Shown piece by piece: positions 3,391 to 57,134 of a stretch of DNA of 64,000 bases (position 1 is the first letter of the stretch; each line of letters starts with the position of its first letter). The position numbers were made by a program, and so were the translations under genes. The stretch is taken from NCBI GenBank assembly GCA_001189095.1, contig LFCK01000001.1, positions 84,485 to 148,484 on the forward strand. Direction: 5' to 3'. Source of the DNA: Parcubacteria bacterium C7867-001 (lineage in GTDB: Bacteria > Patescibacteriota > Minisyncoccia > Phycocordibacterales > Phycocordibacteraceae). The notes beneath the pieces were generated by a model. That model saw only the letters and a list, made by a program, of their open reading frames with translations. It ran no database searches and had not been told where the DNA came from.

Positions 3391-3430
3391 AAAAAAGCGG
3401 GCCGACCCAGAGGGTCGGCCCGTATTTTTA
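3391..3430. terminator. Bidirectional intrinsic terminator
   Basis: A-run, then CGGGCCGACCC-AGAG-GGTCGGCCCG hairpin, then TATTTTTA; lies between convergent genes. Confidence 0.6.
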
Positions 3431-11017: not shown

Positions 11018-11073
11018 GCCGCCACCCTACCAAATCCGTCACCCATTTACCAGCCCCCATCCTCTCTAGAGGA

Positions 11074-11111
11074 GGTAACTATAACTCTGGATATCCAGAG
11101 TTATAGTTACC
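11074..11111. repeat. Perfect 38-bp palindrome GGTAACTATAACTCTGGATATCCAGAGTTATAGTTACC; candidate operator or RNA hairpin
   Basis: Read directly from the sequence. It overlaps the stop codon of the PaaX-like gene and lies ~57 bp upstream of the lipase start codon. Confidence 0.9.
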
Positions 11112-11686
11112 TAGGTTTTTCTAATTTTGGCAAAGAGAAGTGGGCGCGAAGGGCGGCTTCATTTTCAATATGATCAACAATCATATACAAAAGATTCTTT
11201 CCTATCCGTAACTCAGCTTTCAAGAGCGTCACAAGATCTTCGGCATTGTGTGGAGAAATCCAGACACTATTTTGCAATCGTACAAAGCCGAACGCAGTAA
11301 GCAGTTCTTTTATACGTTGTCGGAGAACTGGGGCTCGGCCCTGAATATCATAAATAACCAGACGCCATTTCTGATCCCACTTTTTTCTTCTCCCATCCCT
11401 ACCACACGAAGCAAGGAAAAACTTACCTTTGTCTGTAATGCGTATGCGGGATGTGCCGCTCTCCCTCTGAATTTCGAGGTATCCAAGTCGAGCAAGTCGG
11501 TCAATGCTTTTTCGAATCTGAAGCCTTCTCTGAACCACGTGTTTTATCTGGCCTAACGCAACGAGAACGTTGGGAGCGACTATTGCGACAGAAATTAATC
11601 CAGATGTCGCTACAGTAGCCAATATGGCTTTATTGATTTTGGTTCGTCGGATGGACTTGTGGTTCGCTGCTTCTAGTTTACCCATG
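11107..11686 (-). CDS. PaaX-like transcriptional regulator (wHTH plus PaaX C-terminal-like domain)
   Basis: WDQKWRLVIYDIQGRAPVLRQRIKELLTAFGFVRLQNSVWISPHN fits the PaaX C-domain. Start MGKLEAANHK at 11686, taken instead of the track's 11739, because that upstream extension is encoded by the palindrome itself. Confidence 0.55.
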
Positions 11687-11688
11687 AA

Positions 11689-11724
11689 GTAATTATAACT
11701 CTGGATATCCAGAGTTATAATTAC
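11689..11724. repeat. Perfect 36-bp palindrome GTAATTATAACTCTGGATATCCAGAGTTATAATTAC; second copy
   Basis: Read directly from the sequence. Sits 2 nt upstream of the PaaX-like start codon. Core TATAACTCTGGATATCCAGAGTTATA is identical to copy 1, and the outer-arm difference (AGTTAC vs AATTAC) is compensated so each copy stays a perfect palindrome. Confidence 0.9.
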
Positions 11725-11735
11725 TTGTGTATATA

Positions 11736-13857: not shown

Positions 13858-14226
13858 CTAACGTTTCCGATTCGATCGGGGGATATTGGCGAGCGCGCGG
13901 CGCTCGTACTCGGGGCCGGTTCTCCCGGCTTGTGCTACGCGTACGGAATATTTACCGCCGTAGAATTCGTAGATGATATCAGCGATATCAGCATAGAGTT
14001 CGTCTGGCAGATAGCTTTTCACAATAACGCGTATCTTGTGTTGATTGTCTGTCGAAGGGTCACCTGGCCCGATTTGACTGCTTTCAACAACAGAGCAGAA
14101 TTCCTCCCTGCTCACAAAGCGCCCGTGGTACTGGGCGTCCAAGTACTCGCTGACCTTTCGGCACAAACGAGCTTTTCCCTCCTGATCGTATATATCCGAT
14201 AGGAAGTGTATTCGAATCATCGACAC
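13858..14226 (-). CDS. Hypothetical protein
   Basis: 122-aa ORF; hairpin at 13838-13858 immediately downstream. Confidence 0.4.
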   Translation of the reverse strand: MSMIRIHFLSDIYDQEGKARLCRKVSEYLDAQYHGRFVSREEFCSVVESSQIGPGDPSTDNQHKIRVIVKSYLPDELYADIADIIYEFYGGKYSVRVAQAGRTGPEYERRALANIPRSNRKR

Positions 14227-19613: not shown

Positions 19614-20093
19614 ATGGGCTATACTACAACGTATATGAAAGGAATGTTCTGGAATATCTTTTTCCTCGTGTTCTTCGCCGTGCTCGTGCTCTTCGGCTAC
19701 GGCTGGCTGTATGACAATGCACGGACACCGGACTGGATCTCGCTGGGCGATTTCTTCCTCATCGTACTCGCCATTTTCCGCCTCGTGCGCCTTGTTTCGT
19801 ATGACCTCATCCTCCACTTCTTCCGCGATTGGCTCGCAAAGGCTCCTGCAGATTCTTTTCTCGGAACGCTCTCGGCGTTGGTGCATTGTCCGTGGTGCAC
19901 CGGCCTTTGGTTCTCTGGCTTCGTTCTCTTCTTCTACTACGCAACGCCGTTTGCGTGGCCGATCATCCTCATGCTCGCACTCGCGGCCCTCGCTTCAATC
20001 CTTCAAATTCTCGCGAATCTGATTGGCTGGACTGCGGAATCAAAAAAACGTTCGGTTGTTGGGCAACAAAACTCAACCTCTACCTGCGGATAA
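19614..20093 (+). CDS. DUF1360 membrane protein; start may be at 19635
   Basis: FRLVRLVSYDLI and HCPWCTGLWFS motifs typical of DUF1360. Confidence 0.6.
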   Translation: MGYTTTYMKGMFWNIFFLVFFAVLVLFGYGWLYDNARTPDWISLGDFFLIVLAIFRLVRLVSYDLILHFFRDWLAKAPADSFLGTLSALVHCPWCTGLWFSGFVLFFYYATPFAWPIILMLALAALASILQILANLIGWTAESKKRSVVGQQNSTSTCG

Positions 20094-20145
20094 AAGAAAA
20101 ACTCCCGTCGAAACGGGAGTTTTTCTTTCGGGGAACTAGAGGGGT

Positions 20146-32259: not shown

Positions 32260-33030
32260 ATGCACTCTCCCGCACTCATCGGCTACTACACCATGGTTAG
32301 GAAGGACGTCTTCCGGATTTTCCGTATCTGGACGCAAACGCTGCTTCCGCCGGTCATCACGAACGTCCTCTACTTCACGATTTTCGGAACGTTCATCGGC
32401 AGCCAGCTGCAGGAAATCAACGGCCACTCCTACATGCAGTTCATCGTGCCCGGCCTCGTCATGATGACCATCATTACGAGCGCGTACATGAACACCGTTT
32501 CGACCTTCTACTTCGCAAAATTCATCAAGAACATCGAGGAACTGCTCGTTTCTCCGATGCCGAGCTGGGTTATTGTCGCTGGATTCGTGACGGGTGGTGT
32601 CGTGCGTTCGTTCCTTGTGGGAACGCTCGTCATCCTCACCTCACTTTTCTTCACGCACATAGTAGTTGCGAATGTCCTTATCATTTTCGCTGCGGCGTTC
32701 CTCACCTCGTTCCTTTTCTCGCTTGCTGGTCTCGTGAATGGCTTCTTCGCCAACTCGTTCGACGCGATTTCCATCATCCCGACCTTCGTGCTGACCCCGC
32801 TTACCTATCTCGGCGGCGTCTTCTACTCGATTGAGGCACTCCCGCCTTTCTTCAAGACCCTTTCGCTCCTGAATCCGATCCTCTACATGGTGAACGCCTT
32901 CCGCTACGGCTTCCTCGGATTCTCCGACGTGCCCATTGACGTCTGCTTCTATGTGCTCGGCGGCCTTACGGTGCTTTTCTTCGGTATCACGCTCGCGCTC
33001 TTCATCAAGGGAACTGGGTTCAAGAATTAA
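32260..33030 (+). CDS. ABC-2 type transporter permease
   Basis: Six TM helices immediately after the ATPase gene. Confidence 0.8.
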   Translation: MHSPALIGYYTMVRKDVFRIFRIWTQTLLPPVITNVLYFTIFGTFIGSQLQEINGHSYMQFIVPGLVMMTIITSAYMNTVSTFYFAKFIKNIEELLVSPMPSWVIVAGFVTGGVVRSFLVGTLVILTSLFFTHIVVANVLIIFAAAFLTSFLFSLAGLVNGFFANSFDAISIIPTFVLTPLTYLGGVFYSIEALPPFFKTLSLLNPILYMVNAFRYGFLGFSDVPIDVCFYVLGGLTVLFFGITLALFIKGTGFKN

Positions 33031-33039
33031 GGGCGCTCG

Positions 33040-33198
33040 GGAATTAAAAACCAAGCGAAGAGTCGCTCTCGACGCTGAAAAGGACGGGGCTCGTTACGAA
33101 AAATCGAAGAACTCGCTATGCTCAAACAGCTTCAATTTTTCTACTCGCCAACCGTCCTTTTCAGCGTCTCCACTCCAAGGCTTGGTTTTTAATTCCCT
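33040..33198. repeat. Bipartite long-range inverted repeat (outer 18-bp arms GGGAATTAAAAACCAAGC / GCTTGGTTTTTAATTCCC; inner 17-bp arms GACGCTGAAAAGGACGG / CCGTCCTTTTCAGCGTC)
   Basis: Both arm pairs are perfect reverse complements. Layout is a 14-nt bulge, the inner stem, a ~64-nt loop, then an 11-nt bulge. It sits in the convergent spacer after the ABC permease stop. Confidence 0.85.
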
Positions 33199-33217
33199 CG
33201 CTGATTGAGGGATAAGG

Positions 33218-33252
33218 AAACGGCCGCCCTTTGGGCGGCCGTTGTTGTTTTT
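33218..33252. terminator. Bidirectional intrinsic terminator
   Basis: AAACGGCCGCCC-TTTG-GGCGGCCGTTGTTGTTTTT. Confidence 0.6.
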
Positions 33253-33655
33253 ATGCGGCGACTTTCGCGTCTCTGCTGTTTGCGTACGCCGTGAGCATCT
33301 GTCCGCTCTCGATGAGCATTGCTGCATGTACGCGTGCGCAGGGCCACGTCGACGCGAGCAGCTCCTTGTAGAAATGCTCGAACGATCCGCCCCTTACCGA
33401 CACGGAGAAGGTGCCAGCCCCCGCAGGACCGTATATTTCGACGGTCGCATCCACTCGAGGTGCTTCTTGTTTGAAACGAAACACTCGGACTTGAATGTTG
33501 CGAACAGAAATGATCTGGGTGTTGCCGATCTCCTTGAGATAGGCAAGACATCCTTCGTAGACCTGCCGTGCATGGTCCGGATGGAGCGGTTCGTCCCTTC
33601 CGTGGGGCGCCAGATGTAGGCTGGAATCGATTGATATGTTCGGCCCAAGACTCAT
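33251..33655 (-). CDS. Hypothetical protein
   Basis: 134-aa ORF; no recognised motif. Confidence 0.4.
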   Translation of the reverse strand: MSLGPNISIDSSLHLAPHGRDEPLHPDHARQVYEGCLAYLKEIGNTQIISVRNIQVRVFRFKQEAPRVDATVEIYGPAGAGTFSVSVRGGSFEHFYKELLASTWPCARVHAAMLIESGQMLTAYANSRDAKVAA

Positions 33656-34601: not shown

Positions 34602-34935
34602 CCGAATTTTCGTTTTTCGATCTGGCGTAACGCTTGCCTTTCACCCCTCGGATGTCGTTATTTTTTGGCGTCCGTAGAGCCTGTAGATACGCCCTCTTCT
34701 TGTCCACACCTTAGTTTGAGAAAGGCGGGTTTATCATTACCTTGTTCCCCCAGCTTTAGGCAGACAGGGAGGTGGCGACAGTCGACGATTGCGGATCCTA
34801 CGCGGCATCCGAAAAACCAAGCGACGATTGATTTGAGCGACTCCTTTCTCTGCTCGCTACGCGCGAGAGAGGTTCTTTTAGCGACTCCTTTTTTCGCGCG
34901 CAGCGGCTGACTTATAAGCCGTTATTTTTTTCAGT

Positions 34936-37899: not shown

Positions 37900-37911
37900 T
37901 TCGCTAAAAAG

Positions 37912-37945
37912 TAAAAAGGCCTCACGCTTGTGAGGCCTTTTTACT
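37912..37945. terminator. Intrinsic terminator after nrdA
   Basis: AAAAAGGCCTCAC-GCTT-GTGAGGCCTTTTTAC. Confidence 0.65.
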
Positions 37946-37994
37946 TCGCTTGAAGTTGTGTAGTAGGGGAAAGTTATACACAGGTTATGCACAA

Positions 37995-43819: not shown

Positions 43820-43931
43820 AGACGTGCGCGGTTAGTGGTAATGAGAATAGGAAACCATCTAGCGCGCGAAGTTTTGGTGAAGGAAAAGTAAAACGGCCCG
43901 CGAAGCGGGCCGTTTTACGAAGGATACGCGT

Positions 43932-57093: not shown

Positions 57094-57134
57094 CAAAACG
57101 CCGCGACGAGCGAAGCTCGTCGCGGCGTTTTGCA
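57094..57134. terminator. Intrinsic terminator of trxB
   Basis: AAAACGCCGCGACGAGC-GAAG-CTCGTCGCGGCGTTTTGC. Confidence 0.65.

Follow-up and report, generated by a model that had tools for sequence, protein, structure and literature searches.

A long interrupted hairpin between an ABC-2 permease gene and its terminator in Parcubacteria bacterium C7867-001, a putative palindromic intergenic element

The hairpin and its place behind the permease gene

The 64,000-nt stretch of DNA analysed here, called the window below, belongs to Parcubacteria bacterium C7867-001, a metagenome-assembled genome (MAG) from the Hanford aquifer comprising 812 kb in 5 scaffolds with 53% GC (PMC4508563). The window covers about 8% of this genome, and the subject of this study is a hairpin-forming sequence of about 170 nt within it, located at 33032-33202 between the gene for an ABC-2 type transporter permease and an intrinsic terminator. 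The permease gene (32260..33030, + strand) matches the Pfam family ABC2_membrane (E 3.8e-34), encodes a product 100% identical to KND51752.1 and ends with a TAA codon at 33028-33030, and the hairpin starts 1-2 nt beyond it. An earlier note on this DNA had placed the permease stop at 33030 and a canonical terminator 3' of the element; the open reading frame (ORF) and the Pfam match confirm the former, and the latter was found on the + strand. This terminator of the ABC operon extends over 33219..33253; its stem of 11 bp, 9 of them GC pairs, closes a loop of 3 nt, and the tail is GTTGTTTTTA (its hairpin, at 33219-33243, is canonical on the + strand, with tail GTTGTTTTT). It begins after a gap of 17 nt behind the end of the long hairpin, which itself reads GCUUGG-UUUUUAAUU at its 3' end; the scan scores only the separate 33219-33243 hairpin as a + strand terminator. 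No promoter-like site adjoining the long hairpin was found in a scan of the region, and no switch in GC skew marks a replication origin or terminus at the site.

Direct reading of the sequence, a repeat finder and folding all define 33032-33202 as a single long interrupted hairpin on the + strand, its extent taken from minimum free energy (MFE) structures and z-scores and including four basal pairs (33032-33035/33199-33202). It is bordered by the 5' flank CGCTCG (33034..33039) and the 3' flank CTCGCT (33197..33202). The outer left arm GGGAATTAAAAACCAAGC (33039..33056), an A-tract followed by a short GC stem, is complementary in 18 of 18 positions to the outer right arm GCTTGGTTTTTAATTCCC (33180..33197), a short GC stem followed by a U-tract, and the two read together as AAAAA-CCAAGC...GCTTGG-TTTTT. 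At the junction between the outer and inner helices (5' side 33057..33070), GAGT pairs with ACTC at 33172-33175, and an unpaired CUC belongs to the CTCG at 33068-33071. The inner left arm GACGCTGAAAAGGACGG (33071..33087) is in turn complementary in 17 of 17 positions to the inner right arm CCGTCCTTTTCAGCGTC (33152..33168), and this pair of arms extends to 39 nt at 77% complementarity. Both perfect arm pairs claimed in the earlier note were recovered in this way, each one base away from where they had been placed. The same note had described a long interrupted stem around an open loop of about 64 nt; the stem stands, the open loop does not, since 16 further pairs (3+2+7+4) form inside these 64 nt around an apical loop of only 20 nt. 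Within this inner part the CTCG at 33090..33093 lies opposite the CTCG at 33144-33147 in a 2x2 internal loop (C-G, U.C, C.U, G-C), followed by the apical helix, whose 5' side GAAAAAT C GAAG (33098..33109) pairs with 33130-33141, and by the apical loop AACTCGCTATGCTCAAACAG (33110..33129), which holds one CTCG and a non-conserved ATG (33118-33120).

The predicted fold of 33031-33205 is very stable on either strand (-78.7 kcal/mol and z -8.9 on the + strand, -89.1 kcal/mol and z -10.2 on the - strand), and none of 200 shuffled sequences was as stable in either case. Folding with DNA parameters also gave stable structures, of -44 and -47.5 kcal/mol. An 18-mer arm is expected by chance 0.03 times in the window even with three mismatches allowed, and the hairpin is the sole high-quality long-range inverted repeat within the 64 kb; a sliding-window MFE scan for further giant hairpins was non-discriminating. 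The hairpin is not an assembly artefact, because a gene for the identical ABC-2 product is called on six contigs, one of these six places having been viewed, and because an orthologue occurs in an unrelated sample.

Conservation, compensatory change and turnover among relatives

The orthologue lies on L128, a metagenome contig from an unrelated Joint Genome Institute (JGI) sample, whose permease is 91% identical to that of the window at the amino acid level and 82% at the nucleotide level. The same element is present at the same position after the permease stop. Its 138-nt core is identical in 122 of 138 positions (88%) with a single 1-nt indel, as against 65 of 129 (50%) at the four-fold degenerate sites of the adjacent permease gene and about 60%, with many gaps, in other intergenic regions at like divergence. 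Identity between the two sequences shows no increase toward the 3' end of the permease gene, the last third of which is 76-79% identical, so it is from the stop codon onward that conservation is high. The absence of any rise in identity at the gene's 3' end also rules out a recent recombination tract running into the ABC-2 gene. The gene downstream differs, being a 134-aa ORF without relatives (ORFan) in the window and a membrane protein gene in L128, so the element travels with the 3' end of the permease gene and not with its other neighbour. At the place equivalent to the terminator L128 holds a different hairpin, to which a simple terminator finder gave no score.

Between the two copies, the inner helix of the core contains two fully compensatory pairs (G-C to C-G and A-U to G-C), and the core helices show three G.U pairs and one A.C mismatch when read on the + strand. 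The CTCG/CTCG internal loop at 33090/33144 is invariant. In the outer arms there are four edits per arm, indels among them, each mirrored on the opposite arm, and the arms are fully complementary in both sequences (18/18 in the window and 19/19 in L128). The rate of change is alike in paired (10/88) and unpaired (6/52) columns, as counted on alignment A4 with the predicted structure. The covariation score of the core was reached by 127 of 500 shuffles, and the power of such a test is low because only three lineages carry the element. A covariance model of the element (R2) scored 174 bits on the + strand and 49 bits on the - strand of the window copy, values that are uninformative on the functional strand because R2 was built from the + strand. 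The check across homologous loci proposed in the earlier note gave compensatory changes in the core and mirrored edits in the outer arms. The unstructured spacer free of covariation that the same note had named as counterevidence is not what the relative holds, because the orthologue keeps the hairpin with compensatory changes. Conserved structure with compensatory changes is what is generally expected of structured cis-regulatory RNAs, and it is seen here in three lineages only and with low power. In the lineage of the window and L128 the structure is real and maintained, either under constraint or by active homogenisation.

The third lineage is represented by L153, L154 and L155, whose permease is 81% identical to that of the window at the amino acid level. 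A hairpin of about 100 nt follows directly after the permease stop (L153 5308-5411, z -8.3), with the same CGCTCG...CTCGCT flanks that are identical in the window and in L128, and with 19-bp perfect arms of unrelated sequence. When the outer pairs are matched up starting at the inner end, 9 of the 17 are changed on both sides between L153 and the window; the interior differs from the window type, and the L153 version is without a U-tract. The CGCTCG flank is also present in L099, where a left arm of significant similarity (score 26 versus 15 +/- 2.1 for shuffled sequences, none of 2000 as high) occurs with no right arm. In L158, with a permease 97.7% identical to that of L153, the site holds only a short terminator-like hairpin. 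The element is absent from 33 GTDB relatives with permeases at most 84% identical to that of the window.

The closest relatives of the window (L144-L151, permease about 90-91% identical at the amino acid level) also have no element; there the permease gene is followed after 7 nt by genes for GT2, VTT and BacA proteins. This order is probably ancestral, as judged from its presence in more distant genomes as well. In the window the element, the terminator and the ORFan stand in place of GT2 and VTT, and no remnants of the GT2 or VTT genes were found in the spacer. In the comparison of spacers suggested in the earlier note, the element is kept in L128 and has a variant in L153 but is absent from the closest relatives of the window. 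Gene order thus breaks at this site, which is at the same time a spot where relatives acquire, reshape and lose long hairpins. The ORFan (33251..33655, - strand, convergent), which occupies the place of the relatives' GT2 and VTT genes, has no Pfam or NCBIfam match. A search of 5.8 billion proteins recovered nothing but the ORF itself, which may be no genuine gene. A link between the hairpin and this ORF was considered and rejected, given that the ORF is an ORFan and that L128 has a membrane protein gene in its place.

The tetranucleotide CTCG is a recurrent feature of the element. It occurs six times on the + strand of the window copy, where about 1.2 occurrences are expected, and its complement CGAG not once; none of 20000 shuffles reached six. 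Five of the six are retained in L128. The ratio of CTCG to CGAG on the sense strand is 6:0 in the window, 5:0 in L128, 4:1 in L153 and 20:7 in the type B hairpins described below. Copies stand directly at both sides of the perfect palindrome (33036-33039 and 33197-33200), and the mirrored pairs 33036/33197 and 33090/33144 are predicted to form internal loops of the kind C-G, U.C, C.U, G-C. The earlier note had pointed to possible CTCG/TCGC direct repeats at the borders. CTCG does lie on both sides in the window, L128 and L153, as a target duplication would require, but it occurs four more times inside the element; no site with a single CTCG and no insert was found. The flanking direct repeat may accordingly be one instance of a repeated architectural motif, because mirrored CTCG pairs recur and would form internal loops, and a target duplication is still conceivable.

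Type B hairpins and searches for further copies

A different hairpin of 115-125 nt, referred to as type B, was found in related Paceibacteria MAGs (alignment A2, model R1), where it occupies the same site behind the ABC-2 permease gene in L096, L101 and L105, and also in L123. Profile searches gave 14 full-length copies in 10 genomes, as well as a truncated copy after the ribonucleotide reductase (RNR) gene in L131/L133. The copies are located at L096 4528-4653, L101 1669-1796, L105 2456-2581 and 3364-3482, L104 17223-17344, L107 619-746, 9859-9983 and 18272-18391, and L108 8268-8392, and on the - strand at L119 277-153, L131 3651-3527 (with the partial copy at 13872-13941), L123 5518-5395, L099 2866-2741 and L152 709-585. 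The conserved core reads ..CATCTGCnTCGTTGCGGG..CGTAC-loop-GTACG..CCCGCGCCTCGCATCTGA.., and 16 of 26 pairs show compensatory changes (RNAalifold). Type B begins at or beside the stop codons of genes for ABC ATPases, ABC-2 permeases, the large subunit of RNR and proteins with an RRM domain; twelve of the 14 copies are in sense orientation to the upstream gene and two, in L099 and L123, are antisense. In four copies a canonical terminator follows within 10 nt, giving a layout of stop codon, hairpin and terminator. The 3' untranslated region (3'UTR) of the RRM gene contains type B in L119, L131 and L152, whereas the window and eight other loci have no insert there and a terminator hairpin that is alike, which indicates that type B colonised new sites. 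Type B is absent from Rfam and from viral contigs and has no CTCG flanks. The gap between the ABC ATPase and permease genes carries sense copies in L105 (2456-2581) and L107 (9859-9983) and an antisense copy in L099 (2741-2866).

The two kinds of hairpin are alike in several respects. Both occupy the niche between stop codon and terminator, including the same ABC-2 site, and both have an A/U-rich outer stem and pyrimidine internal loops of the UC/UC type. In both, (C)TCG is over-represented on the sense strand, and they share a GCT(T)CGTTACG motif, which reads GCTCGTTACG in the window and GCTTCGTTACGG in type B. Type B differs in being dispersed and in its conserved CGTAC..GTACG apical hairpin, which is absent from the window element. 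Homology between them is unsupported, as R1 gave no match at 33031-33205 with filters off at E<=10 and nhmmer gave none at E 1000. Type B may be of more general interest than the window element. As a separate observation, the window contains terminator-like hairpins at 37909-37946, 20093-20128, 3391-3429, 43888-43918 and 57094-57132 with arms of 14-18 nt, A-tract and T-tract included; four of the five are perfect palindromes and the one at 3391-3429 is 89% complementary. The hairpin at 37909-37946, which follows the RNR gene, gives a weak match to the type B model that covers the outer stem only, its interior being absent.

The earlier note had proposed searching the genome for other copies of the arms. 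None turned up in the 64-kb window by blastn and pattern search, nor in about 0.64 Mb of related loci by nhmmer and by the covariance model R2 (run on 644 kb). A metagenome scan with a conserved 18-mer returned ten loci, all chance matches, and is a weak negative, as the source and L128 contigs were not returned either. The protein database was searched with the ORF running through the element, with spurious ORF calls over further copies in mind, and gave no candidates. The best matches in Rfam 15 (E<=10) reached 22 bits against thresholds of 50 and fell on the terminator, not on the hairpin; Rfam likewise gave nothing relevant on nine related loci and L107. No paper on such palindromic repeats or structured RNA motifs in Parcubacteria or the candidate phyla radiation (CPR) was found in the literature.

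Interpretation of the element and other features of the window

Several known classes of bacterial palindromic elements resemble the window element in part. The repetitive extragenic palindromic (REP) sequences of proteobacteria, with the bacterial interspersed mosaic elements (BIMEs) and REPINs built from them, are non-coding hairpins that lie in transcribed spacers, behind stop codons or between cistrons, and shield the upstream mRNA from 3' exonucleases. REPs measure 20-40 nt, occur in tens to hundreds of copies together with a RAYT gene and have a conserved tetranucleotide beside the stem, and REPINs form hairpins of about 100 nt. The element shares with them the non-coding hairpin after a stop codon and a tetranucleotide adjoining the stem, but differs in being present once in 64 kb, with no RAYT (Y1_Tnp) domain in the ORFs scanned and no match to any of 5,426 E. 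coli genomes (blastn, word size 11), which also separates it from ERIC (enterobacterial repetitive intergenic consensus) and BIME sequences. ERIC and the Correia elements (CREE) of Neisseria lie in intergenic DNA that is transcribed and form imperfect palindromes of 100-160 bp, which one relative may have and another lack; both are multicopy families with conserved ends, Correia elements duplicate TA, and Correia transcripts are substrates of RNase III that alter mRNA stability. Size, intergenic placement and presence or absence among relatives agree, as does the occurrence of type B in either orientation, whereas here the ends are the most variable part, the flanks are CTCG and not TA, the phylum is another and the sequence does not match.

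The likeness to miniature inverted-repeat transposable elements (MITEs) lies in the small size, the absence of coding capacity, the 18-bp terminal inverted repeats with 100% complementarity, the possible 4-bp direct flank and the location at a site of indels and rearrangement. It ends at the lack of further copies and of a partner insertion sequence (IS), and at terminal repeats that vary between orthologues (arms four edits apart, core 88% identical), where MITEs share conserved termini with an autonomous IS. The MITE-like insertion considered in the earlier note is supported indirectly only, by the turnover of hairpins at this site and the CTCG flank in three lineages; against it stand the missing second copy, the variable arms and the lack of a transposase among the ORFs scanned. 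Repeated hairpin terminators, such as the TRIT motif of M. tuberculosis and the paired uptake sequences of Neisseria and Haemophilus, are another parallel. Like these, the element is a palindrome at a gene end with A-tract and U-tract arms; unlike them, it is followed by a separate canonical terminator 21 nt beyond its outer arms, lacks the U-tract in its L153 version and is 3-4 times as long as a terminator. The element is also unlike integron attC sites: a reading of the sequence shows neither an RYYYAAC nor a GTTRRRY core site where the arms end, housekeeping genes surround it, and the ORFs scanned gave no integrase domain.

The element looks like one more, lineage-restricted case of the palindromic intergenic elements already known and not like a new kind of system. 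The reading that we prefer, at a probability of roughly 0.45, is that of a palindromic intergenic element (REP/ERIC/MITE-like) residing in the 3'UTR, where it would form a 3' stem-loop stabilising or processing the transporter mRNA. In its favour are that hairpins turn over among close relatives, that the site is tied to rearrangement, that the outer arms are perfectly Watson-Crick and that the clearly dispersing type B offers a parallel. Since the interrupted palindrome fills the gap between permease stop and terminator, the transporter mRNA would carry it as its 3'UTR; that the sense strand is the one transcribed we infer from this position and from the CTCG bias. How the element arrived can likewise only be surmised, its mobility being putative. 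Hairpin-forming DNA would appear, be remodelled and disappear in the stop-to-terminator gap, where gene order also breaks in this clade of Paceibacteria. Once present, the hairpin is kept: substitutions and indels in its helices are mirrored, whereas its unpaired loops do not change and are rich in CUCG on the sense strand, including the CUCG/CUCG 2x2 loops with U.C mismatches. The element probably acts as an mRNA 3'-end hairpin: so stable a stem-loop upstream of a terminator would slow 3'-to-5' exonucleolytic decay, and the stem may offer a site for a double-strand-specific nuclease or a binding protein, setting the stability of the ABC transporter message.

Several results weigh against this reading. 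A single copy was found in about 8% of the genome, where several would be expected of a MITE, a negative that is itself weak, and no copy was found in viral contigs, plasmids, phages or E. coli genomes. A scan of 50 of the 67 window ORFs detected no transposase, integrase or RAYT (Y1_Tnp) domain. The outer arms are the least conserved part of the element, which is the opposite of classical terminal inverted repeats. The counts of G.U pairs and A.C mismatches do not identify the transcribed strand, and the 56 bp of the three outer helices contain no G.U pair at all, a property that fits maintenance at the DNA level at least as well as selection at the RNA level.

This last property also speaks for an alternative in which the hairpin is a palindrome of the DNA without function, as RNA or otherwise. 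Fold-back or inverted duplication would have produced it where a rearrangement joined the DNA, and template-switch (quasipalindrome) correction during replication would keep it perfect. The three outer helices contain no mismatch either, indels are mirrored between the window and L128, the DNA-parameter folds are stable, and the site is a breakpoint with an ORFan alongside, where GT2 and VTT have been replaced and the downstream genes differ among the window, L128, L153 and L158. Arm-to-arm correction offers no explanation, however, for unpaired loops that are 88% conserved while synonymous sites are saturated; the mirrored CTCG/CTCG pairs break the palindrome identically in two species, and the same flanks surround different arms in L153, all of which makes this origin improbable. 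The conserved loops speak for another alternative, in which the element is a dedicated cis-acting structured RNA of the ABC-2 mRNA: a specific protein or RNA would read the CUCG loops displayed by the long helix and exert gene-specific post-transcriptional control, as opposed to the element being a generic stabiliser or a selfish sequence. Such a role would suit a hairpin whose place is always immediately behind the ABC-2 stop and whose orientation is always sense (so in the window, in L128 and L153, and as a partial copy in L099), with loops conserved like the stems and far above the level of synonymous sites, six CTCG against no CGAG, and CGCTCG/CTCGCT flanks that persist in three lineages while the sequence of the helix is replaced. 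We nonetheless consider it rather unlikely, as most close relatives with the same operon do without the element, the interior is unconserved between the window and L153 types, no Rfam family matches, and in other relatives unrelated dispersed hairpins, sometimes antisense, occupy the same site.

The CTCG motif also allows a reading based on transposition, in which the hairpin was moved as single-stranded DNA by an HUH/Y1 enzyme of the IS200/IS605 or RAYT type cutting at CTCG. Insertion would occur 3' of a CTCG, the element itself would end in CTCG, and nested CTCG-bounded layers would represent self-insertions. The strand specificity of the CTCG bias, its position directly beside the perfect palindrome in three lineages, the spacing of 32, 22, 22 and 32 nt that resembles successive layers, and stems that vary with the structure kept, as if shape were recognised (as in IS608 and REP biology), are all consistent with it. 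The missing Y1 or RAYT domain among the scanned ORFs, the lack of another copy and of an empty site with a single CTCG, and type B copies that are not flanked by CTCG render it decidedly improbable. The earlier note had, finally, raised a 25-aa peptide encoded in the loop and an independent small RNA gene. An ATG-initiated ORF does exist at 33118..33192 (+ strand), and it has 24 codons; in L128 its ATG is replaced and a 1-nt indel breaks its frame, the peptide region lies inside the paired arms, and it was rejected as a gene. With no promoter-like site found nearby, an independently transcribed small RNA has no support, and either kind of gene seems hardly credible. Among the three options of that note (structured 3'UTR RNA, small RNA, MITE-like insertion), the first is the best supported, by a hairpin between stop and terminator, with no adjoining promoter-like site found and with compensatory conservation.

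The window element, the L153 variant and type B could conceivably be members of one undescribed superfamily of hairpin elements of 100-170 nt in Paceibacteria (CPR), an idea that we regard as doubtful. If it were true, the superfamily would be characterised by placement between stop and terminator, by outer stems that are hypervariable yet perfectly paired, and by conserved (C)UCG motifs on the sense strand that form loops with U.C/C.U mismatches. Either it would have spread by a strand-specific mechanism involving single-stranded DNA, or some conserved RNA-binding protein would recognise its members as a post-transcriptional regulon. The RRM protein would be a candidate reader of such a regulon, since type B follows the gene for this very protein in three genomes.

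CPR (Patescibacteria) genomes are extremely compact, and to our knowledge almost nothing is known about their non-coding DNA. A non-coding hairpin of 170 nt that is 88% identical amid saturated synonymous sites implies function or active maintenance in a genome that sheds most of its dispensable DNA. A hairpin at one locus in two or three uncultured lineages is by itself of moderate interest. Together with type B it suggests that CPR bacteria own an uncatalogued repertoire of palindromic 3'UTR elements, which could matter for mRNA stability, operon stoichiometry, genome rearrangement and the assembly and annotation of CPR MAGs.

Two further features were noted in the window. Two near-identical perfect palindromes of 40 bp (AGGTAACTATAACTCTGGAT|ATCCAGAGTTATAGTTACCT) at 11073-11112 and 11687-11726 bracket, in a stretch of lower GC content, a 210-aa gene with PaaX/Cas2-like and winged-helix domains that adjoins a gene for a PD-(D/E)XK nuclease; they may serve as operators or delimit a small mobile module. 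Upstream of the gene for an ATP-cone ribonucleotide reductase, a conserved leader extends over 34602-34935. It gave no Rfam match at the gathering threshold in the relatives scanned. The leader also occurs in L097, L098, L102, L131, L152 and L153, contains the blocks ..ATCCACA.., ..GGTACAATRAnCCTCC.. and ..CGAATTATCA.., and possibly represents NrdR boxes or a structured leader.

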